Part shown: positions 1-35,403 of the stretch, in pieces
Numbering within the stretch: position 1 is the stretch's first letter
Layout: each line of letters starts with the position of its first letter
IMG/VR virus record: IMGVR_UViG_3300020220_003261
DNA length: 64,000 bases
DNA from: a virus
Direction: 5' to 3' (one strand)
Notes under the pieces: generated by a model
Seen by the model: the letters and a program-made list of their open reading frames with translations, nothing else
Told to the model about the DNA's origin: nothing
The model's database searches: none
Position numbers and translations under genes: made by a program

Positions 1-699
1 TTTAACCCTTTATATGATAAATTTTTGTTTCTGTCTTATAACAGACAATGCAGACACCATAGGATTAGATTTATAATTGATTTGTTAGATAAGAATTTAA
101 TTAACAAAGGATTAATAAGTTTAAATAAATTAAATAATATTCCATATGAAACAACGGATCAAAATAAAGATTTTTTAATTAACAAAACACCGTTGATTAT
201 TGATTCACTTCCTGATTTAACGAATAACTTGGCTGTAAACATAACCACTCAAGACTACGAAAGAACATTTATGTCTATTGTCACCGAAACTTTAGCAGAT
301 GATAATACTTTATTTTTTTCTGAAAAAGTATGGAAACCTATTATGGTTGGTCATCCTTTCATGATTTATGGTAATCGTGGGTCATTAAAATATTTGAAAG
401 ATTTAGGATTTAAAACATATGATAAATGGTTTGATGAATCATATGATAACGAACTTGATAGGGACATTAGATCAAAAAAAATTGTAAATGAAATAGAAAG
501 ATTAAGTAAAAAAAGTTTAGAAGAATTGAAAATAATAAGAGAGGAAATGAAAGAAACTTGTCAATATAATTTTCATTTTTATAAAAAATATTATTCAGAA
601 AAGTATGGTAATAATGACCAATCTAAAGCAATAAGAGATATTTTATTAGAAATTTGGTCATCAATTTCTAATACAACGCCAAAACCAAATTTAATATGA
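1..699 (+). CDS. Glycosyltransferase-like phage protein, 5'-truncated (frame open from base 1)
   Basis: SIVTETL..FFSEKVWKPI..HPFMIYG..LGFKTY..DESYD block, shared with 3840..4847; ends PKPNLI. Confidence 0.5.
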   Translation, partial: FNPLYDKFLFLSYNRQCRHHRIRFIIDLLDKNLINKGLISLNKLNNIPYETTDQNKDFLINKTPLIIDSLPDLTNNLAVNITTQDYERTFMSIVTETLADDNTLFFSEKVWKPIMVGHPFMIYGNRGSLKYLKDLGFKTYDKWFDESYDNELDRDIRSKKIVNEIERLSKKSLEELKIIREEMKETCQYNFHFYKKYYSEKYGNNDQSKAIRDILLEIWSSISNTTPKPNLI

Positions 700-3853: not shown

Positions 3854-4847
3854 AAAAGAATTTATAATATGTTTTTCAAGCCATTACGGTAAAAATGTTT
3901 TGAAACCGTTGATGGAGGATATTAAAAAATATTCACCAAAAAAGGTTCTGTATTGGGCAGGTGATGAATGGGCATTACCTGGGGATATGATTATAGAAGA
4001 TTTAGATAATCTAAAAGATTTGATCATAGACACAAATACACAATTATATGTTCTTTTTGGAAGTTGTGAAACTGAGAAAGGTCATTTCTACAAAAAAGTT
4101 TACCCACAAGAAAACTTTAAAATTTTAAATTGGCCGACTTATTTCATACACAGGGTTAACTACGATACTAATAATTTTTTAAACGAATTTAACTATCTTT
4201 TTTCCAACTTAAATTATATACCACATCATCACAGATGTGTTTTAATGGATGAGTTATATAATGTAAATTTATTTAATGTTGGAAAAATATCATGGAACTT
4301 AATTGATGAAAATTATTCACAATATGATTTTAAGTATTGGAAACAAGAACTTATAGAAATAGACAACTTTATTAAAAACAAAAAAAATTTCACAAATACC
4401 TTTTATGAAACCGATGACTCACTAATATCAATAGTAACAGAATCAACCACAAGAGATATGTTTTTTACTGAAAAAACATTTAAACCAATCATATCGGAAA
4501 GACCATTTATAGTTTTGGGGTATAAGGGTCAAAATTTAGAATTAAAAAAATATGGATTTGAATTATTCGATGAAATATTTAATTATGAGTTTGATTTATC
4601 TGATGATGTGGTTTATCGAGCAAAAGGTATTGTTCAAAACCTACAAAATTTAAAAAATGAAAACTATAACTTATTATATAATAAAGTATCAGAAAAGTTA
4701 AGACATAATAAAGAAGTCGCACTTAACATATTAGAAAATGACTTATTTATACCACAAGAAATATTGGAATTTAAAAACTTATATAAAGACGAATTCATCG
4801 AAGGTTTACACCATAAAGTTCCTCAATTTTTCTCAAAGTATTTGTAA
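3840..4847 (+). CDS. Glycosyltransferase-like phage protein (paralogue of 1..699)
   Basis: SIVTESTT..FFTEKTFKPI..RPFIVLG..FELFDEIFNYEFD. Confidence 0.5.
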   Translation: MEESKKEFIICFSSHYGKNVLKPLMEDIKKYSPKKVLYWAGDEWALPGDMIIEDLDNLKDLIIDTNTQLYVLFGSCETEKGHFYKKVYPQENFKILNWPTYFIHRVNYDTNNFLNEFNYLFSNLNYIPHHHRCVLMDELYNVNLFNVGKISWNLIDENYSQYDFKYWKQELIEIDNFIKNKKNFTNTFYETDDSLISIVTESTTRDMFFTEKTFKPIISERPFIVLGYKGQNLELKKYGFELFDEIFNYEFDLSDDVVYRAKGIVQNLQNLKNENYNLLYNKVSEKLRHNKEVALNILENDLFIPQEILEFKNLYKDEFIEGLHHKVPQFFSKYL

Positions 4848-6517
4848 TGTATATTATTGGAATATCGGCATTTTATCATGATTCATCGGTCTGTTTATTC
4901 AGAAACGACCAACTTATATTTGCATGTGAAGAAGAAAAATTCACAGGTATAAAACACGATAGTTCCTTTCCCGAAAAAACATTGAATTATATTTTTAAAA
5001 AATATAAAATTCAAAAAAATGAAATTGAAAGTGTTTGTTATTATGAAAATCCACGTATAAAATTAAATAGAGTAATTAAAAACTTAAAGAAGAATATTTT
5101 CAATAGTCCATTATATTGTATAAAATCATATTTGACAATTAAAAAAAACATTAAATATTTGGATAAAAGGTTAAATGAAATATGTCCAAATGTTTTTTAT
5201 TCAACACATCATGAAGCTCATCAGTATTATTCATTTTACTCATCTCCATTTGATAAATCTGTCTGTCTGTCTGTAGACGGGGTAGGTGAAATTGACACAT
5301 TGTCTATGGGTGAAACTAAATATAATGGAATATTATATACTCCTATTGCAGAATATCCTAATTCACTAGGTTTGTTTTATTCTGCCATGACATCATTTTT
5401 AGGTTTTAGACCAAATGAAGGTGAATATAAAGTCATGGGTCTCGCATCATATGGAAACCCTGTAGATCATATTGATAAAGTAAGAAAATTAATAAGATTC
5501 AAAAATGGTAGACTCGAATGTAACATGGATGTTTTTTGTTGGGATCGATCAGATAGAATTATGTTTAATGAGAAATTACCCTCTTTATTGGAAATTGATC
5601 AGAGATTACCAAACGAGAAGTTGGAAAAAATTCACGAAAATTTGGCAGCTTCGGTTCAAAAAGTATATGAAGAAATTCTGTTTAATATTTTAAAAATGGT
5701 TTCATTATGTTCTGAAAGTGGAAATTTATGTTTAAGTGGTGGTTGTGCATATAATGGAACCGCAAACGGAAAAATTACAAGTTTTACCAATTTCAAACAT
5801 CTTTGGATACCACCCGCCCCATCTGACGCTGGATCCACAATTGGTTCATGCGTACACTATATGGTTAAAATTAAAAAAAATGATAATAAAATAACAAGGA
5901 ATCCTTTCTTGGGTCCTGAATATAATGTTGATGACTATACAAAATATATAAAATCATCTTCCAAGACTTATAAAATATTAAACGAATCTAAAATTAGATC
6001 TATTATCTCTAAAGAATTATTAGATGGAAAAGTGGTAGGTTGGTTTCAAGGTCATATTGAATTTGGTGCCAGAGCATTAGGAAACAGATCAATATTAGCA
6101 AACCCAACTGTTGATGGAATGAAAGATAAAATAAATAGAGTTATTAAAAAAAGAGAGGGTTTTAGACCATTCGCACCTATGGTTGTCAAAGAAAAACAAC
6201 ATTTATATTTTGATGTTACGGATGATGTTCCATACATGAATCAAGTGGTCAAAGTTAAACCTGAATATGTCGATAAATTAAAAGCTGTTACACATGTCGA
6301 TGGTACCGCTAGAATTCAGACGGTATATGAACACACCAGAATTCATGAATTATTAATAGACTTTGAAAAGTTAAGTGGATTTCCTATATTATTGAATACG
6401 TCGTTTAATGTAAAAGATAAAACGATGGTATTAACACCCAAAGATGCGATAGATACATTTTATGATACTGAAATGGATATATTAGTTATGGGTAATTATA
6501 TTATATACAAATCTTAA
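4847..6517 (+). CDS. Carbamoyltransferase, NodU/CmcH/TobZ family
   Basis: GISAFYHDSS, EEEKFTGIKH, HHEAH, VDGVGE, EGEYKVMGLASYG, EFGARALGNRSILA, KREGFRPFAP, HVDGTARIQTV, LLNTSFN. Confidence 0.95.
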   Translation: MYIIGISAFYHDSSVCLFRNDQLIFACEEEKFTGIKHDSSFPEKTLNYIFKKYKIQKNEIESVCYYENPRIKLNRVIKNLKKNIFNSPLYCIKSYLTIKKNIKYLDKRLNEICPNVFYSTHHEAHQYYSFYSSPFDKSVCLSVDGVGEIDTLSMGETKYNGILYTPIAEYPNSLGLFYSAMTSFLGFRPNEGEYKVMGLASYGNPVDHIDKVRKLIRFKNGRLECNMDVFCWDRSDRIMFNEKLPSLLEIDQRLPNEKLEKIHENLAASVQKVYEEILFNILKMVSLCSESGNLCLSGGCAYNGTANGKITSFTNFKHLWIPPAPSDAGSTIGSCVHYMVKIKKNDNKITRNPFLGPEYNVDDYTKYIKSSSKTYKILNESKIRSIISKELLDGKVVGWFQGHIEFGARALGNRSILANPTVDGMKDKINRVIKKREGFRPFAPMVVKEKQHLYFDVTDDVPYMNQVVKVKPEYVDKLKAVTHVDGTARIQTVYEHTRIHELLIDFEKLSGFPILLNTSFNVKDKTMVLTPKDAIDTFYDTEMDILVMGNYIIYKS

Positions 6518-6520
6518 AGT

Positions 6521-6637
6521 ATGAAAAAATTGATAGAATGGTTAGTAAACAAGGTAAAAGATTACAAAAAAAAGAGAAAATTCAAAAAGAAATTAGAGGA
6601 ATTGAAGAAAAGAGACCCATTTATTTATAAACATTAA
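6521..6637 (+). CDS. Small basic protein, 38 aa (MKKLIEWLVNK...LEELKKRDPFIYKH); not in ORF track
   Basis: ATG 4 nt after the carbamoyltransferase stop; the PFIY tail resembles small proteins that accompany carbamoyltransferase clusters. Confidence 0.6.
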   Translation: MKKLIEWLVNKVKDYKKKRKFKKKLEELKKRDPFIYKH

Positions 6638-6674
6638 TTTTATTTTTTGAAAGGAAATCATTATATTATATATT

Positions 6675-7109
6675 ATGATATATTGGTTTACAGGACAGCC
6701 CGGATCGGGTAAAACAACATTAGCTCTGGAATTAATGAAACATCTTCCGGCCGCAACCACTGTTCATATTGACGGTGATCACTTAAGGGATATTTTTAAA
6801 AATAAGGACTATTCTGAAGCAGGACGGAGAAAGAATATAGAAAGAGCGCAAGATATTGCTAAGTTCTTAAATACCAAAGGTTATTCGGTTATAGTGTCTT
6901 TAGTTTCCCCATATAAGGACCAAAGAGATAAATTCAAATCAGAAAATTCTGTAGTAGAGATATATGTTCATACCAACGAAACAAGAGGTAGAGAACACTT
7001 TTCTGTAGATGACTACAACCCACCAACTGAAAGATATCTTGATATGGATACAACAAATCAAACAATAGAAGAATCCACTAATAAATTACTTAATACTATA
7101 TTTTTATGA
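6675..7109 (+). CDS. cysC: Adenylyl-sulfate (APS) kinase
   Basis: WFTGQPGSGKTT P-loop, IDGDHLR, DYSEAGRRKNI, VSLVSPY. Confidence 0.85.
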   Translation: MIYWFTGQPGSGKTTLALELMKHLPAATTVHIDGDHLRDIFKNKDYSEAGRRKNIERAQDIAKFLNTKGYSVIVSLVSPYKDQRDKFKSENSVVEIYVHTNETRGREHFSVDDYNPPTERYLDMDTTNQTIEESTNKLLNTIFL

Positions 7110-7480
7110 AAAGGTACGCAATGTACATTGGCAGGTGGCAAAATTGGCACGCCGGTCACGAATGGCTTATTCGCCAGCAATTAGATAAAGGTAAAAATGT
7201 ATGGGTAGCTATCAGAGATGTACAAGTTGATGAAAATAATCCAAAATCAGCAAAAGAGGTATTTTGGTCATTAAAAAATGAACCATTTTTTGCTAATAAT
7301 ACGGACAAAATAATGGTATCTGTCATTCCAGATATAGAATCCGTGAATTATGGTAGAGGTGTTGGATATGATGTTATTTATCATGAGCCGCCAAATGAAA
7401 TCGCCGAAATAAGCGGAACTAAAATTAGAAAAGGAGAAATTGATGTCAATGGTAAAACGACACATAGCAAAGAGTATTAG
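7106..7480 (+). CDS. Small HxGH nucleotidyltransferase (cytidylyltransferase-like)
   Basis: GRWQNWHAGH and C-terminal ISGTKIRK motifs. Confidence 0.75.
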   Translation: MKRYAMYIGRWQNWHAGHEWLIRQQLDKGKNVWVAIRDVQVDENNPKSAKEVFWSLKNEPFFANNTDKIMVSVIPDIESVNYGRGVGYDVIYHEPPNEIAEISGTKIRKGEIDVNGKTTHSKEY

Positions 7481-7658
7481 CTATAGATTTGTAGGTACAA
7501 TAACCACAATCATATTATCTGTATCTGCTGGCCTACCACTAAAGTGGGCGGGTATGGTTGGTTTGGGTGAGTTTATTTTGAAGCCTATCATATATTTTTT
7601 ACATGAGAGAGTTTGGTACAAATGGATAAAATATGGGTTAAAAAATAAAACAATTTAG
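7449..7658 (+). CDS. DUF2061-like small membrane protein
   Basis: KRHIAKSISYRFVGT...YFLHERVW; cysC neighbourhood. Confidence 0.75.
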   Translation: MVKRHIAKSISYRFVGTITTIILSVSAGLPLKWAGMVGLGEFILKPIIYFLHERVWYKWIKYGLKNKTI

Positions 7659-7757: not shown

Positions 7758-8264
7758 ATGATAAAAGTAATTGATAATATTTTAACTAAATCTGAGTTTT
7801 CTTTTCTAAAAAAAATTATTAACAACCCCAATTTCTATGCGGACAATAAACCACATACTAAGGTTGATTCAAAAAATTATTACAATCGTAAATTCATAAC
7901 ACCTACGGATAATATAGAAAAAAGGATATATGAGTGTTTAAAATTAGAATATGACTCGCTTAAATTCAAAATTTCTAATTGTTGGATAAACCATATATAT
8001 GTGGATACAAACAAAAATGATAATTTTCATAAAGACAGTTCAGATGTTTCTACGGTACTTTTTTTAAATGAGGGATTTATTGGTGGTAATTTTGAATATA
8101 AAGATTTTAATGGTGATATTAATATTATAACACCGAAAGAAAATCGTTTAATCGTAATCGATAAAGAATGTTTACATAGAGTTAGCAACGTAATTGAAGG
8201 TAATAGATACACTTTTGTAGCGTTTTTACATTTTCAAGAAAAAACAAGTAAAACAATAATATGA
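7758..8264 (+). CDS. 2OG-Fe(II) oxygenase
   Basis: FHKD, VLFLNEGFIGGNF, LHRV, GNRYT; ends SKTII. Confidence 0.85.
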   Translation: MIKVIDNILTKSEFSFLKKIINNPNFYADNKPHTKVDSKNYYNRKFITPTDNIEKRIYECLKLEYDSLKFKISNCWINHIYVDTNKNDNFHKDSSDVSTVLFLNEGFIGGNFEYKDFNGDINIITPKENRLIVIDKECLHRVSNVIEGNRYTFVAFLHFQEKTSKTII

Positions 8265-8272
8265 AATTGATA

Positions 8273-8280
8273 TATTTATA
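8273..8280 (+). promoter_or_regulatory. TATTTATA motif (putative phage late promoter) upstream of the ATP-grasp-Hint gene
   Basis: The same 8-mer lies shortly upstream of about ten starts on both strands; AT-rich, so individually weak. Confidence 0.4.
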
Positions 8281-8297
8281 AAAAAAGGAAAAAATCT

Positions 8298-9746
8298 ATG
8301 AAATCAGTATTAATAGCAACAGATTTAATAAAAACAACTTCAGGAGAAATTAAGGTACTCGAAACCAATACTAATGTAAAAATAGGTCAACCTTTTGGTA
8401 CTAACACACATTACATGGATGGTATCATACCATTTATACAGAATGGTGGTTTTCAAACAGTTCATTGTATTTTGCCAAGAAGTTCACATTATTTTAGTGA
8501 TGAATTAAATAGGGTTTGTAATTCTTTAAACATACCACTAACCATACACTTTACTACACCTGACGCCATTACAGTTCCTTTTATTGAGGATTCAGATGAT
8601 GTGTTAATCATAAGATTAACATACGATACAACAGCAATAATCGATGATGATTATTGTAGAGATAAATTCGCATTACAGAAAATAATTAATACTAAATCTT
8701 ATGGTTCAAAAACATATATACCAAATGTTTTAGATGATTTTGATGGTATTGAAGATTTTATATTCAATGAGAACGCTCCAAATTTTATAATTAAAAAACG
8801 TTTTCCAAACTACAATAAAGAAGTGTGGCCAAAATTGTATAAAATTGAAAATTTAAACCAATTAAACACATTAAAATCAGAAATCGAATCTGATTGTTAT
8901 TTACAGGAATTCCATAATTCCGAATTGATTGATGGAAAAAGATGTATTATCAGAACTCTCGATTTATTATATGGTTCAAATTTAGATGTTTTGAATATTT
9001 GTAGTTTTTATAGAACATCAGAATTGGCCGAGGGCTATTGGCCGAATACGTTTGATGAAAATGGATTACTAGCCTTTAAAGACAGATTTAAATATTTATC
9101 TCACGCCTCACATGAGGATTCATATATATCAGAATATGTTTACGATGTTGACCAAGAAGTTGTAATGGGTGATGGTAGTAAAAAAATGTTCGCACTTTTA
9201 GAAGTTGGAGACCAAGTAAAAGGAATTCACATTGAGGGATTGGATTTAGATGAATCATCATACGATTTAAAAACTTGGACTGGTAATTATTCTGATTTTA
9301 TTCAAAATTACAATTTAGTAACAACCGAAGTAAAATATACACACACTTCACCCCCAACAAACAAATTATTTTTAAGAGTTACTCTTAACGATGGTAATAC
9401 ACAATGGGATGATTTGGGTATTTCTCGAATATTAATAAAGGATAACGATTTGATTAGATTTACATTATTTGAAAATTTAGAAGTGGGTGATGAAATTGTC
9501 ACATATAATTTTGAAACTAATTCTGTAGAAATCAAATCAATTCAAACAATAGAAGTTGTTTATAAAGAAAATCAAATTTTAGGCGTTCTTGATGCAGAAC
9601 CAACTGATTTATATCTACCATTAGTTTCTGATAAAATAACAATTATACAACATAACCTGTGTAAAGCTCTATGTAGAAGTACTCAATGTGCTAATGCGAC
9701 ACAATGCGGTGACTGCACTACATTTCAATGTTTAAACCAAAAATAA
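8298..9746 (+). CDS. Fusion: circularly permuted ATP-grasp-like ligase + Hint domain + C-terminal six-Cys peptide
   Basis: N-terminal DLIKTTSGEIKVLETNTN and FIIKKRFPN/YLQEF; Hint-like VVMGDGSKKM..LEVGDQV..LEVGDEI..IIQHN (about 9138-9656); then LCKALCRSTQCANATQCGDCTTFQCLNQK (9657-9743). Confidence 0.7.
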   Translation: MKSVLIATDLIKTTSGEIKVLETNTNVKIGQPFGTNTHYMDGIIPFIQNGGFQTVHCILPRSSHYFSDELNRVCNSLNIPLTIHFTTPDAITVPFIEDSDDVLIIRLTYDTTAIIDDDYCRDKFALQKIINTKSYGSKTYIPNVLDDFDGIEDFIFNENAPNFIIKKRFPNYNKEVWPKLYKIENLNQLNTLKSEIESDCYLQEFHNSELIDGKRCIIRTLDLLYGSNLDVLNICSFYRTSELAEGYWPNTFDENGLLAFKDRFKYLSHASHEDSYISEYVYDVDQEVVMGDGSKKMFALLEVGDQVKGIHIEGLDLDESSYDLKTWTGNYSDFIQNYNLVTTEVKYTHTSPPTNKLFLRVTLNDGNTQWDDLGISRILIKDNDLIRFTLFENLEVGDEIVTYNFETNSVEIKSIQTIEVVYKENQILGVLDAEPTDLYLPLVSDKITIIQHNLCKALCRSTQCANATQCGDCTTFQCLNQK

Positions 9747-9769
9747 ATTACTTATAAAATAATTAGAAT

Positions 9770-9880
9770 ATGTTAATAAAAATTATATTTCAGCCAACAG
9801 AAGAGTCTACGAAACTAAATTTGGATACCGTGATAAAGGATGTTGCCTCCACTATTAAGACAGACATTCAAAACGGTTAA
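9770..9880 (+). CDS. Small protein, 36 aa (MLIKIIFQPTEESTKLNLDTVIKDVASTIKTDIQNG); not in ORF track
   Basis: ATG-to-TAA ORF that fills the gap between 9746 and 9887. Confidence 0.5.
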   Translation: MLIKIIFQPTEESTKLNLDTVIKDVASTIKTDIQNG

Positions 9881-9886
9881 AATACT

Positions 9887-10180
9887 ATGGGATTAGATAT
9901 TAAAGAAATAACTAAAGCTTGGTTTGATTCTTATTTTGCAAAAGAAGAACAAAAAGCTTTAGCAAAAAAAAGATTTGAAATATGTAAAAATTGTCCATCT
10001 TTAAAGAATAAGTTTCAAATACTTTGGCCAAAAATGGAAATAACAGTTTGTGGTGAATGTGGATGTCCAATAAAAAAAAAGATTTTTTCATCTAACTTTA
10101 ATGCGTGTCCATTAAAAAAATGGAAGGAGGTGGATATGGAAAATATGAAACTATTTGAAAAAAATAAAACTTTAATATAA
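9887..10180 (+). CDS. Cys-rich putative metal-binding protein
   Basis: CKNC..CGECGCP..CPLKKW; ends NKTLI. Confidence 0.65.
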   Translation: MGLDIKEITKAWFDSYFAKEEQKALAKKRFEICKNCPSLKNKFQILWPKMEITVCGECGCPIKKKIFSSNFNACPLKKWKEVDMENMKLFEKNKTLI

Positions 10181-10237
10181 ATTACTTAAAAGTGTGATTT
10201 ACTAAAAAATTTATAGTAAAGGAATAAATTAATTAAT

Positions 10238-10837
10238 GTGAATTATCCTTTTTATCAAGAAGTTATTTTTACGGGAGAAGAATGTAAAAAAATAATAGAA
10301 TATTCTAAAAAATATCCGGCACTCGCTGAAAAGAGAAAATTAGAACCAAAAATAGATTTGACCACAGGTAGAGTAGAACAATTGTTCCAATCTAACGATG
10401 GTGATAAGAAAGGAAAGGCTTTCTTCGTTTATGATATTGTTAGAGATGAGACTACTGAATGGGTTTTTAAAAAACTATTAAATTGGTTTCAAATGGTTTC
10501 GGATATTAAATTAAAAGAAACGCCCGTAGTAAATGGTATGACTCTACTTAATTATAGAGTTGGTGATTTTTTTATGAAACATACGGATATATATGAAAAT
10601 TTTGAGTGGAGAAGATGGACATTAAACATTCAATTAGGTAATCAATATAAAGGGGGTGATTATGTTTTGTATTTAGATGACAAAGAAGTTATCTTAAATA
10701 AAGATACGGGAAACGCAATTGCATATTGGGCCGGTACTGAACACGAAATAAAAGAAATAGAAGAAGGAGAAAGGTGGTCTATTGTTTGTACTATTACTAA
10801 GTATATGATTGTTGAAAAAGAAAAGAAGTTATTTTAA
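10238..10837 (+). CDS. 2OG-Fe(II) oxygenase
   Basis: KHTD, LNIQLGNQYKGGD, EHEI, GERWSIV. Confidence 0.85.
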   Translation: MNYPFYQEVIFTGEECKKIIEYSKKYPALAEKRKLEPKIDLTTGRVEQLFQSNDGDKKGKAFFVYDIVRDETTEWVFKKLLNWFQMVSDIKLKETPVVNGMTLLNYRVGDFFMKHTDIYENFEWRRWTLNIQLGNQYKGGDYVLYLDDKEVILNKDTGNAIAYWAGTEHEIKEIEEGERWSIVCTITKYMIVEKEKKLF

Positions 10838-10838
10838 A

Positions 10839-11531
10839 ATGTCCCTATTAATAAATGATGAGTTAATATGGGTATCAATACCGAAAAATGCGAGTCATTC
10901 GATTGAAAATTCACTTTATTTATCTAATCTTAAAATTGAAAACTTTGATTCCAAACTTAATAATTTAAATCCATCTAATCCAAAATTTTTGCATAAACAC
11001 CATAAGTTAGATGATATGTGTAAATATTGGAAAAACAAAAAATCAATTTGTGTAAAAAGAGACTTTGTGGATAGATGGATTTCCGCATTATCGTACACTT
11101 GGGACCAATTTAAAAAAAAAGAATTATCTCCGATTATTGAGTATGAGGATATAGACAATAATTTTATTTATAAAACCTTTGATAAAAAATTTTCAGATAT
11201 TTTATATGGTCATGATGGTAGAGTTGAAATTATAAAATATCTAATTAAAGATAAATTAAACGAAGATAGTTTATTTGAAAATAGAATAAGCGTATTTTTT
11301 TCACAAAATTATTGGCTTGGATTAAGTAAAAATTGTGATTATGAATTCAATATAAATGAGTTAGATAAGTTGGTTGATTTTATTGAAAACAAATATGGGG
11401 AAAAATTATTGTTAAATAAATTTAACGTATCAAAAAAACAAAGGAATAAAATAATAATAAATAACGAGTTTAAAAACCACATATGGGAGATTTTTGAAAA
11501 ACCATTTGTAAAAACGAAAAAAATTTTGTAA
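10839..11531 (+). CDS. Sulfotransferase-like protein (family 2-like)
   Basis: WVSIPKNASHSI PAPS-binding loop, KRDFVDRWISA; start moved to ATG 10839. Confidence 0.7.
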   Translation: MSLLINDELIWVSIPKNASHSIENSLYLSNLKIENFDSKLNNLNPSNPKFLHKHHKLDDMCKYWKNKKSICVKRDFVDRWISALSYTWDQFKKKELSPIIEYEDIDNNFIYKTFDKKFSDILYGHDGRVEIIKYLIKDKLNEDSLFENRISVFFSQNYWLGLSKNCDYEFNINELDKLVDFIENKYGEKLLLNKFNVSKKQRNKIIINNEFKNHIWEIFEKPFVKTKKIL

Positions 11532-11536
11532 ATAAG

Positions 11537-12154
11537 ATGCACGGTAAAGAAAAAATAAAGATTTCTAAAGATGAGATAAAAATTATTAATAGTAATTTGC
11601 CAACAAATACTATAATGCATTCGGGTGAAAAACATTTAATGGCTAGACTTGCGGACATTGCAACAAAAAATGGCGGTGATATTTTAGAAATTGGTTTTGG
11701 TTTACACCTATCCGCCGATGCTGTTCAGAGTAATCCAAATGTAAAATCACATACTATCATTGAAATACATCCTGAAATATATAAATCGGCATTAACTTGG
11801 GCAAAAGATAAACCAAATGTTAATATTATTTTAGGTGATTGGATTAAAATTTTACCAATATTAGGGGGAAAATTTGATGGTATAATTCACGATACTCATA
11901 TAGATAGAAACATTCCATTTTTTTTGGATTATGTTAAAAATAATTGTAAAAAGGGTGCCATTGTCGCTTTTTTTGAGTATATGTTATTTGATACAAGATT
12001 TAATGGAGTTAGATATAAATTGAACAAAGAAGACTACGATTCTTTACCTTACAGAAATAATCAATGTTTTTTTAATTACGAATACGAATTAAAATATACA
12101 ACATTTAATGGTATTGATTTTTATTCAGATAGAAAAGTTGACAAATTAATTTAA
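11537..12154 (+). CDS. Guanidinoacetate/arginine N-methyltransferase-like (GAMT/Rmt2-like)
   Basis: MHSGEKHLM..GGDILEIGFGL..HTIIEIHP..WA..GDW..FDGIIHDT. Confidence 0.7.
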   Translation: MHGKEKIKISKDEIKIINSNLPTNTIMHSGEKHLMARLADIATKNGGDILEIGFGLHLSADAVQSNPNVKSHTIIEIHPEIYKSALTWAKDKPNVNIILGDWIKILPILGGKFDGIIHDTHIDRNIPFFLDYVKNNCKKGAIVAFFEYMLFDTRFNGVRYKLNKEDYDSLPYRNNQCFFNYEYELKYTTFNGIDFYSDRKVDKLI

Positions 12155-12156
12155 AA

Positions 12157-13203
12157 ATGATTGATTTAAAGAATTATATATGTAGAGTACCTTTTGATTC
12201 ATTAGAAATACATAATAATGTTTGTTTTGTCTGCTGTCCTTCTTGGTTACCAAATAGAGTAGAACTAAATAAAATTCCATTAAGAGATGTTTATAATAGT
12301 AAACCAATAATTGATATTCGAAAATCAATTTTGGATGGTACATTTAAATACTGTGATAAAGAAATGTGTCCTCATTTGAGTAAAGTAATAAAATATGATA
12401 TTCCTGCAGGCCCGATTATTAAAAAAAATAGTGTAGAAAAATTTGATTTAATAATAAAAAATAATACACCAGATAATGTGGTAATGAACTTTGATAGAAC
12501 ATGTAATTATAAATGCCCTTCGTGTAGAATAAATTTAATTGTTGAGGATAGTAATGGAATTAAAAGAATTGAAAAAACAATAGAAGAAATTGATACTTAC
12601 TATTCTGCAAATGTAAAAACATTGTATATTACAGGTACAGGCGACCCATTTGTATCAGTAGGGTTTAGAAATTATTTAAGAAATTTTAACACTAAAAAAT
12701 ATCCAAAATTACAATCAATACATTTACATACAAACGCATCAATGTGGAATCAAGAAATGTGGGAATCAATGCCAAACGTACACAAATATGTAAAAACGTG
12801 TGAAATTAGTATTGATGCCGGAACAAAGGATACTTATGAAAATAAAACTAGATTGGGTGGTAATTGGGAAAATTTACTAAATAACTTAAAGTTTATATCT
12901 ACGATACCAACATTGTATAGAGTTAAAACATCATTTGTGGTACAAGATTCCAATTATATGGAAATGGAAACATTTTATAATTTAATGTATTCTATATTTG
13001 GTGAAAAAGTAAATGTATTTTTTGGTAAAATAACAAATTGGGGAACATATTCTGAAGGTGAGTTTAAATTAAAGCAAGTTTGGAATTTTGAACATCCGGA
13101 ACATATGTTATTTAAAAAAGAATTTAATAAGATATGGAGGAACCAACGACTTTTTCATAATTTATATGAGTTCATTGATAATACAAATAAAACGTTAATA
13201 TAA
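12157..13203 (+). CDS. Radical SAM protein with N-terminal Cys-rich auxiliary domain
   Basis: CNYKCPSC (CxxxCxxC), GTGDPF, HTNA, ISIDAG; N-terminal CRVPF..CFVCC..CDKEMC. Confidence 0.9.
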   Translation: MIDLKNYICRVPFDSLEIHNNVCFVCCPSWLPNRVELNKIPLRDVYNSKPIIDIRKSILDGTFKYCDKEMCPHLSKVIKYDIPAGPIIKKNSVEKFDLIIKNNTPDNVVMNFDRTCNYKCPSCRINLIVEDSNGIKRIEKTIEEIDTYYSANVKTLYITGTGDPFVSVGFRNYLRNFNTKKYPKLQSIHLHTNASMWNQEMWESMPNVHKYVKTCEISIDAGTKDTYENKTRLGGNWENLLNNLKFISTIPTLYRVKTSFVVQDSNYMEMETFYNLMYSIFGEKVNVFFGKITNWGTYSEGEFKLKQVWNFEHPEHMLFKKEFNKIWRNQRLFHNLYEFIDNTNKTLI

Positions 13204-13700
13204 TGAAGATTTTATTAATAACCCTACCCAGAACAGGATCCACTTCATTATTAAAAAATTTATCAGAACAATATAATTTAAATGCAATAAGTGAACCATT
13301 CAACCCATCTACTAAAAATTTAGAACAATATAAAAATTTTGATTGGAATACTACAAATGAAATATGTGTTAAAACCCATATAAATCACAAAGACATATCA
13401 TTCTATACAGATTTTGTAAAACTATTTGATAAAGTAATTTTAGTATCTAGAAAGGATTTAAAGTTGTGTGCTGAGAGTTTGGCATATGCAAATCATTTTG
13501 GAAATTTTAGTGAAAAATACAAATGGATTAATACACCTAATTTAACACATAATGTAAAATTAGTAAAAAAATTTGACGCAGATTTAAAAAAATTATCAGA
13601 ACTAATTAATATTGATATATTATACTATGAAGATTTGTTTGATATAAATTCTGAAAATAAATTAAGAAAAAATGTTGTTAAAAGAAAAAATCTTATTTAG
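13203..13700 (+). CDS. Short sulfotransferase-like (P-loop-like) protein
   Basis: LPRTGSTS, SEPFN, VKTH, YYEDLF. Confidence 0.6.
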   Translation: MKILLITLPRTGSTSLLKNLSEQYNLNAISEPFNPSTKNLEQYKNFDWNTTNEICVKTHINHKDISFYTDFVKLFDKVILVSRKDLKLCAESLAYANHFGNFSEKYKWINTPNLTHNVKLVKKFDADLKKLSELINIDILYYEDLFDINSENKLRKNVVKRKNLI

Positions 13701-14190
13701 TAAAAAAGAGTGTGAATATATTATTGAGTTATCTAAAAATTTACCAAATACTAAACCATACACTAGTAAAAGTGACCAATTTAAAGTTTCTTATGATGCT
13801 TGGAAATTAATTTTAGATAATAATTCTCAATGGATTTTTGATAAAATCACTCAATACTTTACATATGCAACTAATCTAAAAATAAAAAAAGAATTAAGTA
13901 CGTTATATATCCACAAATATAATGTAGGTCAACAATTTGAAAAGCATAACGATACGCAATATAAAACTCAAATACACAATGTAGGTGTATGTTTAAATGA
14001 TGATTATGTAGGTGGTGATTTTATCTTATATAATCCAAAGGAAATACTACCGAAAAGACAAGGTGAAATATACACATTTCCTAGTAGTAGATTTCATGAG
14101 GTTGAACAAATAGTAAAGGGTGAACGATGGAGTATAATTGGATTTATACATATAGAAAATATTTATTTATCTAATAAAACTTTAATATGA
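13672..14190 (+). CDS. 2OG-Fe(II) oxygenase
   Basis: KHND, VCLNDDYVGGDF, FHEV, GERWSII. Confidence 0.85.
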   Translation: MLLKEKILFSKKECEYIIELSKNLPNTKPYTSKSDQFKVSYDAWKLILDNNSQWIFDKITQYFTYATNLKIKKELSTLYIHKYNVGQQFEKHNDTQYKTQIHNVGVCLNDDYVGGDFILYNPKEILPKRQGEIYTFPSSRFHEVEQIVKGERWSIIGFIHIENIYLSNKTLI

Positions 14191-14744
14191 AAATCGCAAT
14201 AACCGGTCACAGCGATGGCGTTGGTAAAAGTATTTATGAAAAACTTTTGAAAGAGTTTAGTGTAATTGGACTAAGTAGGACTAATGGATATGATATTAAA
14301 AACGTTGACGAAATATTGAAACAAGTAGAAGAGTGTGATGTTTTTATTAATAACGCTTTCCAACAAAACTACCAAACGTTATTATTTGAAAAACTTTTTT
14401 ACAGATGGAAATATACCACAAAGTTAATTATTAATATGAACAGTAGTTGTGTATACGAGTCGTCAGACTGGAATCCGACATATGCGAATATTAAAAAGGA
14501 TTTTAAAGAAGTTTCTATGAATATCATAAGAAGCAATATTGATAAGAAAGTTAGGATAACTAATTTGTATCCATCAACACTATCTTCTCACACAAGATTT
14601 GAAAAATTAAATAAAATTGATATTAACTATATTTCAGACGTTATTCTTTGGTTAGTGTCTCAACCTAAAGAGGTCGAAATAAGAGAAATGAGTATTTATA
14701 GTACAACTTTGGAGAAAGAATTTAAAATAGATAAGTTAATGTGA
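14187..14744 (+). CDS. Short-chain dehydrogenase/reductase (compact)
   Basis: ITGHSDGVG, FINNA, YANIK (YxxxK). Confidence 0.8.
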   Translation: MKIAITGHSDGVGKSIYEKLLKEFSVIGLSRTNGYDIKNVDEILKQVEECDVFINNAFQQNYQTLLFEKLFYRWKYTTKLIINMNSSCVYESSDWNPTYANIKKDFKEVSMNIIRSNIDKKVRITNLYPSTLSSHTRFEKLNKIDINYISDVILWLVSQPKEVEIREMSIYSTTLEKEFKIDKLM

Positions 14745-15280
14745 ATGTTTGTATAGTTTGTTATAGTAGAGTCGGTGGTACATCTTTTGGAAAATGGTTA
14801 AGTTTAGAATTAAACTACACTTATATACAGGAACCATTTAATCAAAATCATAACGAATTATATAAAAACACAGATTATTCCGAAAATAAATTTGTTATAA
14901 AATTAGAACCTGAACAAGTTGAATTAATTAAAACAGATAAAAAAACGATTGGATTAATAAGAGAAAACACAATGGATTGTGCAATAAGTTTACTACATTG
15001 TTTAGAAAGTGGTAAATGGCACAGAGAATATAGTGTAAATCAAAATTAGATTGATTACAACAAAAAAAGGTTAGAAGAAATAGAACTACAAATAAAAAAT
15101 CAGAACACTAATATTAAAAAAATGAATACGGATATTTTAGTAACATATGAAGGTATATATAATACACGTTCAGATATACTAAAACTAAAAGAATTTTTTA
15201 ATATTAAAAATTTTTCATATATTTCTACATATTTAAACCCAAAAATACGTTATAGAAATGGTAATAAAATAATAATATAA
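14741..15280 (+). pseudogene. Sulfotransferase-like gene interrupted by one in-frame TAG at 15047-15049
   Basis: YSRVGGTS and QEPFN resemble 13203..13700; the frame stays open for 76 codons after the TAG (IDYNKKR..TYEGIY..GNKIII-stop). Confidence 0.7.
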
Positions 15281-15350
15281 ATTTGGAGCGATTCTCATTA
15301 CTTTGGTTCTTGCAAAAAGAAAATATAAAATTTAAAACAAATAAACTATT

Positions 15351-16148
15351 ATGAATCCTTTACAATATTGGAAACCAGAAGGATTCGAAATTTCATCTTA
15401 CAAATATTCATTAAGAGAAAGAGTAAATCAAACATATACAACTTCGGGTGGAGATAATACAAATTTATGTACTTACACATATAATGAATTGGGATTTAGA
15501 GGTGATAGTATAAAAAAAGAAGGTTTCAAAGTAATGTCATTAGGATGTTCAATCACAGAAGGGGTTGGGGTAAATGATGACGAGACCTGGCCCGCGCAAT
15601 TTTGTAACCATATTGAAAACGGGGTAAATTTAAATTTTGGAACCGGAGGAAGAAGTAACGATTTTATTTGCAGATGTTTAATAAGTTATTATGATTTAAT
15701 ACAACCTGATTTAGTTTTAATTATGTATACATTTCCGCATAGAAGAGAAGTTTATACAGAAGATAACGGAATAGAACCATATGTACCAACAAAAGTTTGG
15801 GGAAAATTATTAGAAACTAAAGAGGGACAAATTATACAAAATAGTATGGATGTTTTACAAAACGATAACTCTGATTTTATAAACTGGTATAAAAATCATA
15901 TTCTAATTAAGTACTTTTTAGAAAGTAAAAAATGTAATTGGTTGTGGAATGGGAAAAACTTAAATATCAATTACAATGAATTCAATAGATTTGATGGGGA
16001 AAAATCATTTTTAGATAAGGGAAGTGACGATAAGCACCCTGGTCCAAAAACACATAATAGAGATGCAAATTTATTATACGATTATATTAGAATGAAATTT
16101 CCAAACTATATTCCAAAAAACGAACATGCCTTTCTTAAAATAATTTAG
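15351..16148 (+). CDS. SGNH/GDSL-like fold protein
   Basis: SLGCSITEGVGV, GTGGRSND, DDKHPG. Confidence 0.6.
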   Translation: MNPLQYWKPEGFEISSYKYSLRERVNQTYTTSGGDNTNLCTYTYNELGFRGDSIKKEGFKVMSLGCSITEGVGVNDDETWPAQFCNHIENGVNLNFGTGGRSNDFICRCLISYYDLIQPDLVLIMYTFPHRREVYTEDNGIEPYVPTKVWGKLLETKEGQIIQNSMDVLQNDNSDFINWYKNHILIKYFLESKKCNWLWNGKNLNINYNEFNRFDGEKSFLDKGSDDKHPGPKTHNRDANLLYDYIRMKFPNYIPKNEHAFLKII

Positions 16149-25091: not shown

Positions 25092-25729
25092 ATAAATCAT
25101 TTTATAGTCAATCAATGTGGTCTGGTTTACCGAGAAAATTATCAATATTAGTTCCAACAAGGGATATGATTCATTCTCATTTTGCATATTGTTTAACACA
25201 ACTTATCAAAACCACAAATCAAAATAATATTGATACATATCTTTTTTTTGATTCAAGTACAATTTTATTAAATCAAAGAACAAATTTGATCAAGAAATCT
25301 TTAGAGGTTAAATCTGATTATTTGTTATGGTTAGACAGTGATATGATGTTTCCGTCAAGCACCGCATTAAGATTATTAAATCATAATAAAGATATTGTAG
25401 CGTGTAATTACATAAAAAGAACTAAACCACAAAACCCAGTTGCTTATAAAGATATTACAGATTTTAATAGTTTTATACCGCTAACACCTCAAGAAGAGTT
25501 AGTTGAAGTAGAAGGAATAGGAATGGGTTGTATGTTAATGAAGACAGATATATTCAACCAATTAGATAAACCTTACTTCAAATTTATTTATAAGGAAGAT
25601 ACAGATGATTGGCATGGAGAAGATTTTGATATGTTATCAAGATTTAGAAAACTTGGGTATACCATTTATGTTGATTCTTTATTGAGTTTAGAAATAAAAC
25701 ATTTGGGTAACCAAGCATTTGGTGTTTAA
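25088..25729 (+). CDS. GT-A fold glycosyltransferase-like protein
   Basis: LWLDSDMMFP (DxD), GIGMGCML, GEDFD. Confidence 0.75.
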   Translation: MNKSFYSQSMWSGLPRKLSILVPTRDMIHSHFAYCLTQLIKTTNQNNIDTYLFFDSSTILLNQRTNLIKKSLEVKSDYLLWLDSDMMFPSSTALRLLNHNKDIVACNYIKRTKPQNPVAYKDITDFNSFIPLTPQEELVEVEGIGMGCMLMKTDIFNQLDKPYFKFIYKEDTDDWHGEDFDMLSRFRKLGYTIYVDSLLSLEIKHLGNQAFGV

Positions 25730-26835
25730 ATTTCTTTTTTAATTTCGATTAACATATTACCTATATTATATTGATTAGGTTTATATTCAGGAATTGATAA
25801 TCTTAATTTTTGTAATGTATAAACATCTTCATCTGTAAATGGTGAGGTTTCATAAATTATTACATCCACCATGTCAGTTAAAGTAAATTTACTTCTCAAA
25901 TCGTATCTAGTATTCTTCTGTTCGTTTTCAATATAGTCATCAGGTATTATACCTAAATCTATCTTATCAAAAAAAGGTTCAATTTCATATAACCTATTAC
26001 AATTTCTTGTTAATAAAGACATTGTGAATGTTTTAAATTTAAACGGGTTATCCTCCCAATATCTCATCTCATTAAATGCGGATATTGGTATTCCCCATTT
26101 CCTCACAAAGTTTCTATTTGATGATATTTCATATTTAAATCTATCGTTTTTATAATCGTTTCCGAATCTAGATGTTTGAGAAACAAAATGATATGTTATT
26201 GCACATTCAGTTGTTTTTAGATCGTAACCTTTCAATTTAGCACGGATTAAAAAATCATCATCCTCACAAAAACAAGGAATAAAACTGAATCCATCAAACA
26301 TCCCAACATCTTCAAACATTTTTTTATATCCACTCATAAAAAAAACTGCGCCATCATATAGTGTTATGTCATTTTTGTGATCTTCGACATAACTATCAAA
26401 AGATATGTAATCAAATTCTTGAAATGTTCTACCCATATCAATTAAAACTTTACCTGGCCTTCTATGTGTGGTAAAAATTGGAGGTTCAATTGTTGTATAA
26501 CACAAAACCATTTTCTCATTTAACAACCTATCAATATTTTCTAAGAAATTTTTACCAATGACCATGTCATTGTGAATTAAAACTAATTTTTCGGTATCAA
26601 CAAGATTAATACCTGTGTTATATGTTTCAGAAAATGTTAATCTATCATCATCATGAAATATTGTGAGATAATCATCTTCATTTGATGTATTTTCTAACCA
26701 TTGTTTAGTCCCATCATATGACCCACCGCTACTAATTACAATTGGAATTTTAGGGTATATTTCACGTATTCTTTTATAACAATTTTTTGTTAATTCTAAA
26801 TTATTATAAACCGCTAAAACAAAACTTATGTCCAT
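25726..26835 (-). CDS. Glycosyltransferase family 2
   Basis: ISFVLAVYNN, GGSYDGT, LIHNDM, FCEDDDF. Confidence 0.85.
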   Translation of the reverse strand: MDISFVLAVYNNLELTKNCYKRIREIYPKIPIVISSGGSYDGTKQWLENTSNEDDYLTIFHDDDRLTFSETYNTGINLVDTEKLVLIHNDMVIGKNFLENIDRLLNEKMVLCYTTIEPPIFTTHRRPGKVLIDMGRTFQEFDYISFDSYVEDHKNDITLYDGAVFFMSGYKKMFEDVGMFDGFSFIPCFCEDDDFLIRAKLKGYDLKTTECAITYHFVSQTSRFGNDYKNDRFKYEISSNRNFVRKWGIPISAFNEMRYWEDNPFKFKTFTMSLLTRNCNRLYEIEPFFDKIDLGIIPDDYIENEQKNTRYDLRSKFTLTDMVDVIIYETSPFTDEDVYTLQKLRLSIPEYKPNQYNIGNMLIEIKKEI

Positions 26836-27680
26836 TTACTCAAATATGCTTTTATATAGTCATCAATATTTTTTACAGGATTCCAACCTAAAAGTTCTTT
26901 TGCTAAAAAAGATTCACATAAAGTTTCTTGTGATTCTCCAGGTAAATCCTCTGAGTAAATTTTTTCTTTACCATACATTTCTGCAATTTCATTTATAGAA
27001 TAATTATGACCTCTTCCAAATTCAAAGACATTACCCCAACTTTCTTTTTCTTTAATTTTTATTAAACCATCAACAATATCTTCAACATGAGTAAAATCTC
27101 TTCTTTTTTCTCCATTACCATAAATCGTTAAAGGATTGTTGTTTTCGATTAAATTTTCCCATCTACCAATTAATGTTGTATAACCACCCGTTTTTAAATG
27201 ATATGGACCATAAACATTATAAAATCTAGCAATTGAACATTTTAATTTAAAATGTTCTTGATAAAGTTTAATTATTTCTTCACCGATGTCTTTACTGAAA
27301 GTATATGGATTTTTAAACTTACCTGAGTGATGTGAACTACTACCAGCATAAATAAGGGGAACATTATTTTTGGAACAATATTCAACTATTTCAAATGTTC
27401 CGTTTGCATTCACATCAAAGTATTCTTTAGGATTTTTAAAAGATGGTTGTATTCTTGCAACTGCAGCCAAATGATAAATTACATCAATATTTTTACAATT
27501 TCCCCAAGAGTTAAATCTTCTAATATCATCTTCCAAATATTTTATGGCACCATCAATATGATTATCTTTCAAACCTGTTGTGTAATTGTCTATTGATATT
27601 ATAAAATGACCCTCATTTAATAACCTTTTAATTAAATTGGTTCCAACAAAACCAGCTCCACCCGTTACAATAATTCTCAT
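26826..27680 (-). CDS. NAD-dependent epimerase/dehydratase
   Basis: TGGAGFVG, YHLAA, YTFSK, RFYNVYGP, RRDFTHVED; start moved to MRIIV. Confidence 0.9.
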   Translation of the reverse strand: MRIIVTGGAGFVGTNLIKRLLNEGHFIISIDNYTTGLKDNHIDGAIKYLEDDIRRFNSWGNCKNIDVIYHLAAVARIQPSFKNPKEYFDVNANGTFEIVEYCSKNNVPLIYAGSSSHHSGKFKNPYTFSKDIGEEIIKLYQEHFKLKCSIARFYNVYGPYHLKTGGYTTLIGRWENLIENNNPLTIYGNGEKRRDFTHVEDIVDGLIKIKEKESWGNVFEFGRGHNYSINEIAEMYGKEKIYSEDLPGESQETLCESFLAKELLGWNPVKNIDDYIKAYLSKWT

Positions 27681-28648
27681 TTTGAATATATTTTCAACCA
27701 ATGTTCAATCATTTCATCCATCATAGATTCGAAAGTATATTCTGGTTTCCAACCTAAAATATTTCTAACCTTAGATGAATCTCCTTTAAGATAGGATAAT
27801 TCTTCAGGTCGTAAAAATTTTTGATTTTGGATTATATATTCTTGATAATCCAAACCTAATGTTTCAAAAACATATTTACACATGTCTCTTACTGATCTAC
27901 TTTCCCCTGTTGCGACAACAAAATCATCTGGTGATGTGTGATTATTAATCAAATGCATAGCCTTTACATAATCTTTAGAATGCCCCCAATCTCTATATGC
28001 ATCCAAATTTCCTAACTCTAAACTTTTTTGTAATCCAAGTTTTATTCTTACTGCAGCCTTCACAACTTTATTTGTGACAAAGTTGGACCCCCTTCTTGGA
28101 GATTCATGATTAAAAAGAATACCATTTGTTGCAAACAAATTATATGCATGTCTATAATTTCTAACAATATTATACCCAAACACTTTTGTGCAACCATATG
28201 GTGATACTGGTGTCATTCTTGTTGTTTCTCTTTGAAATCCATCATCGTCTACGGAGGAACCAAACATCTCAGATGAAGAGGCTTGATAAAATCTAGCATT
28301 CGGACATGAAGTTCTATACGCCTCCAACATATTTAAAACTCCCACCGCATTTGATTGAGCTGTAAAAATTGGAATATCAAAACTAATTCTTACATGTGAC
28401 TGTGCACCAATATTATAAATTTCATCAGGTTGTATTTGATCTAACAATCTGTGTAAGGTAGAATAATCGATAAGATCACCATAATAAGTTTTTACCTTAT
28501 CTTCAAGATGTCCAATTCTACTTTCTTGATGTTCTGGTGTTGAATTTCTCCTAACAATACCATGTATTTCATATCCTAAATCTAATAAGTGTTCGGCTAA
28601 ATAACTTCCGTCTTGTCCCGCAATACCCGTGATAAATGCTTTCTTCAT
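27677..28648 (-). CDS. gmd: GDP-mannose 4,6-dehydratase
   Basis: ITGIAGQDGSYLAE, AQSHVRISF, YQASSSEMFG, SPYG..K, LFNHESPRRG, GNLDAYRDWGH. Confidence 0.93.
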   Translation of the reverse strand: MKKAFITGIAGQDGSYLAEHLLDLGYEIHGIVRRNSTPEHQESRIGHLEDKVKTYYGDLIDYSTLHRLLDQIQPDEIYNIGAQSHVRISFDIPIFTAQSNAVGVLNMLEAYRTSCPNARFYQASSSEMFGSSVDDDGFQRETTRMTPVSPYGCTKVFGYNIVRNYRHAYNLFATNGILFNHESPRRGSNFVTNKVVKAAVRIKLGLQKSLELGNLDAYRDWGHSKDYVKAMHLINNHTSPDDFVVATGESRSVRDMCKYVFETLGLDYQEYIIQNQKFLRPEELSYLKGDSSKVRNILGWKPEYTFESMMDEMIEHWLKIYSK

Positions 28649-30214: not shown

Positions 30215-30248
30215 TTTAAAATATATTAAAAATTTGTTGTTTAAACAA

Positions 30249-30797: not shown

Positions 30798-30801
30798 GAT
30801 T

Positions 30802-31215: not shown

Positions 31216-31216
31216 A

Positions 31217-31963: not shown

Positions 31964-31964
31964 T

Positions 31965-33524: not shown

Positions 33525-33525
33525 A

Positions 33526-35401: not shown

Positions 35402-35403
35402 AT

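Follow-up and report, generated by a model that had tools for sequence, protein, structure and literature searches.

In a 64,000-nucleotide stretch of DNA from an uncultured jumbo phage (IMG/VR record IMGVR_UViG_3300020220_003261, hereafter the window), a run of genes at positions 7758–16148 encodes enzymes of largely unrelated families that end in the same few residues, and these genes are arranged around one encoding an ATP-grasp–Hint protein (AGH) with a Cys-rich peptide at its end. The shared tail is a short linear motif that follows the consensus K-x-x-K-[T/S]-L-I, ends in a free carboxylate and is carried on a flexible extension of 8–15 residues. The reading favoured here, to which a probability of roughly 0.45 is assigned, is that this tail serves as a docking handle tying exchangeable tailoring enzymes to AGH or to a complex that contains it.

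Within the window, which has a G+C content of about 28% and is densely coding, the motif was scored as K.?[LI][ILFM] at the C-terminus (the looser form [LI][ILMF] was used in some of the counts given below). It closes 10 of the 12 open reading frames (ORFs) of 7758–16148 and just one of the 68 other ORFs (Fisher p=4.3e-10), and the same pattern occupies 0.95% of internal positions in window proteins. All of the C-termini that the initial annotation had listed for this cluster, together with the outliers PNLI (699) and NTKLI (61162), were recovered at their stop codons (Table 1), and the minus-strand operon at 25.7–38 kb, singled out there as equally tightly coupled and lacking the pattern, does indeed have the motif in none of its 16 ORFs. 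The two cluster ORFs without the motif are AGH (8298–9746) and 14741–15049, the latter being the front half of a gene, a paralogue of 13203–13700, that runs in frame to 15280 across a single TAG (15047–15049) and ends in GNKIII. Read-through of this codon had been made a condition for counting the tail; the TAG aligns with a conserved Trp of the orthologues (TGG to TAG) and the homology goes on to the tail. The codon reflects a nonsense allele or an error in sequencing; no tRNA gene was found in the window that would support suppression. The NKTI end of the DUF2061 gene (7440–7658) is a coincidence, given that the DUF2061 family is never tailed.

How far does this pattern extend? Relatives were collected from IMG/VR as 80 loci around homologues of the radical SAM enzyme of the window (64–85% identical) and 79 around homologues of AGH (27–59% identical); the 3277 ORFs of these 159 loci, which lie on contigs of up to 335 kb, were clustered, and families were counted if they had at least five members. 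The tail system is present in at least 150 related phage contigs and its distribution over families is bimodal: 30 families are tailed in at least 65% of their members (most of them in 85–100%), 70 in no more than 10%, and 15 fall in between. The tailed set has Pfam support for several subfamilies of 2-oxoglutarate (2OG)-Fe(II) oxygenases, for radical SAM enzymes and for a tryptophan halogenase (E=1e-89), with weaker matches for SET (just under the cut-off) and GDSL-like proteins (below it), and further includes two P-loop families with sulfotransferase-like motifs, a family resembling short-chain dehydrogenases/reductases (SDR-like), a small Cys-motif protein and many families without assignment. 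An earlier statement that the tailed proteins of the window belong to six or more unrelated folds is not demonstrated for the window by Pfam alone, where three 2OG paralogues and two P-loop paralogues are among the tailed genes, but it is borne out across the clade by the double-stranded beta-helix (DSBH), radical SAM, flavin adenine dinucleotide (FAD)-dependent halogenase, SET and GDSL-like families and by many families without a Pfam match. Untailed families are those of AGH, APS kinase, DUF2061, carbamoyltransferase, UDP-glucose dehydrogenase, Hsp20, a GT4-FkbM fusion and methyltransferases; the enzymes of the same operon that supply 3'-phosphoadenosine 5'-phosphosulfate (PAPS) and sugar precursors are without a tail. 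Members of tailed families that are placed far from the cluster keep the tail: in the window at 699 and 61162, and at 21, 310, 332 and 335 kb in G001, a complete relative of 335 kb used for genome-wide comparison; the label therefore goes with the protein, and the motif follows gene family and not position. All 24 relatives of the product of 25–699 end in LI (PKTLI, SSSLI, PNSLI, FQSLI, NNKLI), 82 of 83 radical SAM relatives end in [LI][ILMF], and orthologues of the small Cys-motif protein (9887–10180) carry KTII, KTLI, NSLI or KSII.

Over the radical-SAM-seeded loci the motif ends 480 of 1477 ORFs, and over all unique ORFs the last two residues are Leu (36%) and Ile (38%). A logo of 879 unique tails from the tailed families gives K (0.53) or N (0.17) at −4, T (0.28), S (0.26) or K (0.19) at −3, L (0.66) or I (0.23) at −2 and I (0.66) or L (0.24) at −1, with a further K (0.37) at −7. 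The strict four-residue core is exactly terminal in 532 unique tails versus nine in which it is displaced by one residue, and untailed families have it in 2 of their 666 tails; these counts show a motif that must stand at the very end of the protein.

Could such a pattern nevertheless be a by-product of nucleotide sequence, with K/N/T-L-I encoded by the A/T-rich starts of overlapping genes, by an RNA signal or by microhomology for cassette recombination? The initial annotation had itself cautioned that A-rich start regions can produce K, N and I, and ends in [LI][ILMF] are indeed commoner in genes that overlap the next gene or lie within 15 nt of it (52–57%), the last tail codon alone being skewed to ATA, which permits, and is expected from, ATGA start/stop overlaps. 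Such ends are still found, however, in 24–34% of the genes that precede gaps of more than 15 nt or a convergent gene, and the Leu codons at −2 are close to background (TTA 70% versus 62%, TTG 13% versus 15%, CTN 17% versus 23%), as are the Thr, Ser, Lys and Asn codons at tail positions. Orthologues at 30–40% identity keep the tail with conservative variation, and family members placed far from the cluster retain it. In the same operon, moreover, the genes for carbamoyltransferase, APS kinase, the 124-aa protein, DUF2061 and AGH are equally coupled and yet untailed, as is the 25.7–38 kb operon; close coupling of genes does not suffice for a tail, nor does a tail require it. Taken together, background synonymous codons, tails before gaps and coupled untailed genes make an origin in start regions, RNA or recombination sites very unlikely. 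The caveat thereby falls away, and two outcomes that had been named in advance as fatal to a protein tag, namely a motif common to all coupled gene ends and conservation at the nucleotide level, are not what was found. The tail is thereby shown to act at the level of protein.

The tail is, furthermore, an add-on to the enzymes that carry it. Pfam domains of tailed proteins end 10–15 residues before the stop, and in the AlphaFold2 (AF2) model of the 2OG oxygenase encoded at 13672–14190, the sole tailed enzyme modelled, the fold ends at about residue 160 and residues 169–172 have a predicted local distance difference test (pLDDT) score below 50; the extension bearing the tail lies outside the fold and is predicted to be disordered. 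One 2OG subfamily stops right after its last strand (...NFWFH), with no extension, and thus provides an internal untailed control for its sister subfamilies, which continue into a variable linker and a tail. In the radical SAM enzymes the tail is an extension of 8–10 residues, present in most of the cluster representatives of at least 40% identity, whereas more distant ones stop at a conserved ...HNFHHLL. The stretches that link fold to tail show no similarity from one tailed family to another. That the tag was added to proteins otherwise lacking it agrees with its absence from distant radical SAM homologues and from the 2OG cluster of a cultured cyanophage. The GenBank phage collection yielded no match to the cluster DNA and no tblastn match to AGH or to the radical SAM enzyme; the 2OG oxygenase matches cyanophage genes only, in alignments that stop short of the tail, and no such tails were found in the neighbourhood of the 2OG oxygenase gene of cyanophage S-SSM6a.

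The second line of evidence ties the tail to the AGH gene. In G001, [LI][ILMF] ends are found in 9 of 13 genes of the 280–290 kb bin, which holds AGH, versus 26 of 395 elsewhere (p=5e-8). Across 66 AGH-centred loci (AGH 27–59% identical to that of the window) the tailed fraction is 79–88% at gene positions ±1–3 and falls to 10–20% at ±10 genes, with AGH itself at 0%; likewise, none of 140 AGH family members is tailed. AGH is present in 61 of the 80 radical-SAM-seeded loci, and in all 19 loci that lack it the sequence on the upstream side of the radical SAM gene, where AGH is usually placed, is shorter than 5 kb. At least 271 AGH homologues occur in IMG/VR, and among genes of 60 codons or more inside the tailed block AGH alone is both universal and untailed. 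The tail is thus a mark of those enzyme families that accompany the AGH gene.

What kind of protein is AGH? In its AF2 model (pLDDT 81), the C-terminal part adopts the fold of a C-cleaving Hint domain, which Foldseek matches to Hedgehog, to the BIL2 domain of Tetrahymena BUBL and to mini-inteins (target template modelling score ~0.8), and the N-terminal domain is matched to glutathione synthetase and to the YgiC/YjfC/GspS ligases. Glutathione synthetase is a permuted ATP-grasp enzyme, and characterised members of the glutathione synthetase/GspS type acyl-phosphorylate the C-terminal carboxylate of a peptide and then add an amine. AGH has no Pfam match, and when its alignment was run as a profile against PDB sequences no significant hit emerged. 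After an invariant His-Asn comes a hypervariable peptide (9660–9746 in the window copy) in which Gly, Ser, Pro, Tyr and Trp abound and which has six Cys in 66 and eight Cys in 17 of 89 unique peptides. It is never without Lys, with exactly one, mostly penultimate (...PKL, ...EKV), in 66 of the 89, and 25 of the 89 have no Asp or Glu. In a variant of 912 aa (L069:3218-5956; also in L061, L062, L064, L067, L068 and L070), the ATP-grasp and first Hint domains are followed by three tandem Hint domains, each of which starts with Cys and ends in His-Asn; this protein terminates in ...His-Asn-Lys, without the Cys-rich peptide. There is no Cys-rich ORF near the gene of this lineage, yet about ten tailed enzymes surround it.

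In nearly all related loci AGH is followed by an ORF of 24–50 aa (9770–9880 in the window) that is never tailed. Its product looks helical and amphipathic by eye, and it could be part of a reader of the tail. The sequence TAAATTACTTA recurs after the stops at 9746 (9744–9757) and 10180 (10178–10191); it was considered as a signal and rejected, as its three matches in the window, versus 1.2 expected, are not significant.

How, then, might tail and AGH be connected? According to the docking reading, the tail on its flexible extension would bring the tailoring enzymes of each phage to one common partner, most likely AGH itself or a complex formed by AGH, and, once docked, these enzymes would work on the peptide tethered there or on another substrate bound to AGH. 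AGH is favoured as the partner because it is the only gene of its kind, universal and untailed, in the block and because its ligase class binds the C-terminal carboxylates of peptides; this structural kinship keeps alive both docking to AGH and the use of the tail as a carboxylate handle. The enzyme repertoire fits the composition of the peptide, with oxygenases resembling prolyl 4-hydroxylase (P4H) for Pro, sulfotransferase-like proteins and PAPS supply for Tyr, a halogenase for Trp and SET for Lys. The initial annotation, which had offered a sorting or docking tag, a protease degron or a carboxylate conjugated by the ligase, is upheld in so far as it proposed a protein-level, strictly terminal tag on unrelated enzymes that is tied to the ATP-grasp/Hint gene; of docking, degron and carboxylate handle, which it left side by side, docking is favoured here.

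Several points weigh against docking to AGH, a candidate reader of the tail. As the AGH lineage without a peptide keeps its tailed enzymes, the Cys-rich peptide cannot be the only substrate of these enzymes. Some glycosyltransferase (GT9) and GDSL-like families are tailed only in part, and the loci were seeded by radical SAM and AGH homologues, which makes co-occurrence not independent of phylogeny. Co-variation of tails across families within a genome can be detected statistically but is negligible in size (1.825 versus 1.784 shared residues, z=2.4); since tail variants barely co-vary, there is no co-evolution signal in favour of a phage-encoded rather than a host reader. A complex prediction with AGH, ATP, Mg and a tailed 2OG oxygenase scored 0.00, which is not evidence either way.

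A different use of the same ligase fold is conceivable, if unlikely, with the tail as a handle for ligation: the ATP-grasp domain of AGH would activate the carboxylate of the terminal Ile or Leu and join it to an amine on AGH, either the single Lys of the peptide or a new N-terminus made by Hint, and Hint would release the conjugate, the whole amounting to ATP-driven protein tagging. The resemblance of the ligase domain to glutathione synthetase and glutathionylspermidine synthetase (GspS)-type enzymes speaks for this, as do the strictly terminal motif and the Lys that every peptide contains and that most contain exactly once; with Asp and Glu missing from many of the peptides, an internal carboxylate partner is often absent. 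The AGH variant without a peptide still ends in His-Asn-Lys, and the BIL2 domain of BUBL ranks among the top structural hits for Hint. However, one AGH would be consumed per target when about ten targets are encoded per genome, there is no apparent reason why enzymes should be tagged in preference to structural proteins, the conjugate is hypothetical, and the ATP-grasp domain is accounted for equally well by head-to-tail cyclisation or some other role of the ligase. It is improbable that the tail serves as donor in a new conjugation system, driven by ATP, in which enzymes are covalently fitted with the hypervariable knotted peptide; here AGH would acyl-phosphorylate the -Leu-Ile carboxylate, this would be joined to the single Lys or the Hint-generated N-terminus of the peptide, and Hint would free the conjugate.

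It is rather unlikely that the tail addresses the enzymes to some other destination, be it a host or phage receptor outside the island such as a PDZ-like domain, a compartment, or the virion by a loading resembling that of encapsulin cargo. Class I PDZ domains bind ligands of the pattern [S/T]-x-hydrophobic-COOH, which K-[T/S]-L-I-COOH formally fits: Thr or Ser occupies −3 (PDZ P-2) in 54% of tails and the last residue is aliphatic in 90%. The tail is also conserved across the clade with little lineage-specific drift, as a conserved reader would lead one to expect. In contrast to genuine PDZ ligands, about 46% of the tails have Lys, Asn or another residue without a hydroxyl at the Thr/Ser position, and G001, complete as it is, has no match to PDZ (PF13180, PF00595) or S41 protease (PF03572) profiles. 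Bacterial PDZ proteases are, besides, largely periplasmic, whereas the cofactors of the enzymes in question are cytoplasmic. The reader might instead belong to the host or be of an unrecognised kind.

Also improbable is a role as degron or unfoldase signal, in which an AAA+ protein of the Clp type (host ClpX or a phage ClpC-like/ClpP pair) would read the tail and limit the lifetime of the enzymes or remodel them. The tails are rich in Lys and end in two aliphatic residues, and in placing basic and then aliphatic residues at a free C-terminus they resemble ClpX degrons such as ssrA (LAA) and the C-terminus of MuA, RRKKAI, which is listed as one (PMC8138137, Table 1). G001 encodes ClpP (E=4e-58) and a 670-aa ClpC-like protein with a double AAA+ module, and ClpP, together with a ClpC-like protein, is also present in four other relatives (G002, G006, G007 and G008). 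Three complete, AGH-bearing and tailed genomes (G003, G004 and G005), by contrast, have no ClpP and only weak AAA_2 matches. Unlike ClpX degrons, the tails are confined to AGH-linked families, and degradation would leave unexplained both how closely they track AGH and why the cofactor-supply enzymes of the same operon go without. In G001, the ClpC-like gene (L086:9705-11717, minus strand) has no Clp_N match, and the clpP gene (L091:12530-13207, plus strand) lies beside that of a sigma-70-type factor.

Common descent of the tails by paralogy from one ancestral gene is extremely unlikely, as the paralogues among the tailed genes of the window are outweighed by 30 tailed families without detectable mutual similarity, the DSBH, the radical SAM barrel, FAD halogenase and SET, whose folds cannot be homologous, among them, and by dissimilar linkers between fold and tail; as general explanations, paralogy and the nucleotide-level origin discussed above are essentially excluded.

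The docking reading has precedents in tails that dock unrelated proteins to a hub, such as the QL[SD]LF-type motifs of beta-clamp ligands, the PIP boxes that bind PCNA and the EEVD termini of Hsp70 and Hsp90 that bind TPR domains. Here as there, a few terminal residues on a flexible extension are common to unrelated proteins that work, or in this case would work, on one substrate, and the carriers are modular; the motif is a different one, however, the carriers are enzymes that tailor peptides or proteins, and the hub is a candidate only. PTS1 (peroxisomal targeting signal 1) is another short terminal motif on unrelated proteins, and the cargo peptides of encapsulins and microcompartments are likewise short terminal labels common to unrelated enzymes, but their motifs are unrelated to this one and, judging by gene content only, no shell or compartment gene is linked to the island. 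ATP-grasp enzymes, for their part, are known to act on substrate tails (S6 for RimK, tubulin for TTL, glutathione for GspS). Glutathione synthetase, GspS and YgiC/YjfC are fold neighbours of the N-terminal domain of AGH and the group on which they act is the one that the tail offers, its carboxylate, although AGH shows no sequence-level membership of these families.

Clusters for ribosomally synthesised and post-translationally modified peptides (RiPPs) offer the closest parallel in gene content: a hypervariable core is fused to a conserved N-terminal part, and the flanking set of oxygenases, radical SAM, halogenase and methyl- or sulfotransferase-like enzymes changes from locus to locus. A precursor with a variable core is encoded beside tailoring enzymes here too, in the form of the six- or eight-Cys peptide after His-Asn. 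In RiPP pathways, however, a leader is read by the RiPP recognition element (RRE) domains of the enzymes, whereas the ‘leader’ of AGH is a 450-residue ligase–Hint protein, the recognition element sits on the enzymes, and one AGH lineage has no core peptide at all; no RRE-type Pfam match was seen in the proteins scanned by Pfam. Our literature searches returned no paper on this motif, its set of carriers or its tie to a ligase/Hint/peptide gene, and nothing relevant to the gene layout or to a tail common to enzymes of biosynthetic clusters. The principle of a terminal motif is known; the present motif, its carriers and the tie to AGH appear to be newly described, so far as the literature found can tell.

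Table 1. Tailed genes of the window, AGH and the untailed genes used for comparison.
Coordinates	Strand	Product	Tail	Basis and family pattern
25..699	+	Outlying member of a tailed family	PNLI	
4847..7658	+	Untailed genes of the same tightly coupled operon: carbamoyltransferase, APS kinase, 124-aa protein, DUF2061	untailed	Pfam; families 0–25% tailed
7758..8264	+	2OG-Fe(II) oxygenase (P4H-like)	SKTII	PF13640 E=3e-6; family 92% tailed
8298..9746	+	AGH: permuted ATP-grasp, Hint (invariant His-Asn) and 29-aa six-Cys peptide	untailed	AF2/Foldseek
9770..9880	+	Tiny conserved ORF (36 aa), directly 3' of AGH	untailed	
9887..10180	+	Small Cys-motif (zinc-ribbon-like) protein	NKTLI	CxxC...CxxCxC read from translation
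10238..10837	+	2OG-Fe(II) oxygenase	EKKLF	PF13640 E=3e-8
10809..11531	+	Unassigned family, weak sulfotransferase-like signal	TKKIL	Family 99–100% tailed; a relative weakly matches PF00685, E=0.009
11537..12154	+	Family without assignment	VDKLI	Family 100% tailed
12157..13203	+	Radical SAM enzyme	NKTLI	PF04055 E=2e-7
13203..13700	+	P-loop protein with sulfotransferase-like PRTGST motif	RKNLI	Motif by sequence; no significant Pfam match; family 95% tailed
13672..14190	+	2OG-Fe(II) oxygenase	NKTLI	PF13640 E=1e-9
14187..14744	+	Rossmann/SDR-like protein (weak)	IDKLM	PF00106 E=9e-4, below cut-off; family 100% tailed
14741..15280	+	Second P-loop (sulfotransferase-like) paralogue, in-frame TAG at 15047–15049	GNKIII	
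15351..16148	+	Family weakly DUF6071/GDSL-like	FLKII	Family 71% tailed
25726..38009	-	Comparison operon, nucleotide-sugar/glycan genes	untailed	
60431..61162	+	Outlying GDSL-like hydrolase	NTKLI	PF00657 E=4e-4; family 57% tailed

Two further observations concern individual genes. Distant tailed homologues of the radical SAM enzyme (P0007, P0016 and P0013; loci L098 and L100–L102), on marine and other contigs of 1.7–3.8 kb that are too short for AGH co-occurrence to be seen, adjoin an APS kinase gene, which suggests that the radical SAM family is functionally tied to PAPS/sulfation chemistry. A fibre gene of the window, at 21739–24333 (plus strand), encodes collagen triple-helix repeats together with an S74 intramolecular-chaperone domain and has a G+C content of about 43% versus 28% around it.

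What is the significance of such a label? Clamp tails, PTS1, encapsulin peptides and degrons each revealed a piece of cellular organisation. In the present case four residues suffice to tell, with nothing but sequence, which proteins belong to a previously undescribed phage module of about 30 enzyme families, and they provide a simple rule for finding all of its components, including enzymes without a recognised fold, as well as a clean experimental handle. If the docking reading is true, these phages would possess a pathway resembling those of RiPPs, with the recognition element placed on the enzymes, leaving the enzyme set freely exchangeable. If it is ligation that the tail serves, a new kind of protein conjugation would be at hand, and the conjugation system considered above would derive a ubiquitin-like logic from a ligase and an intein-like domain. 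Either docking or ligation, if true, might furnish a portable tool for recruiting or ligating proteins.

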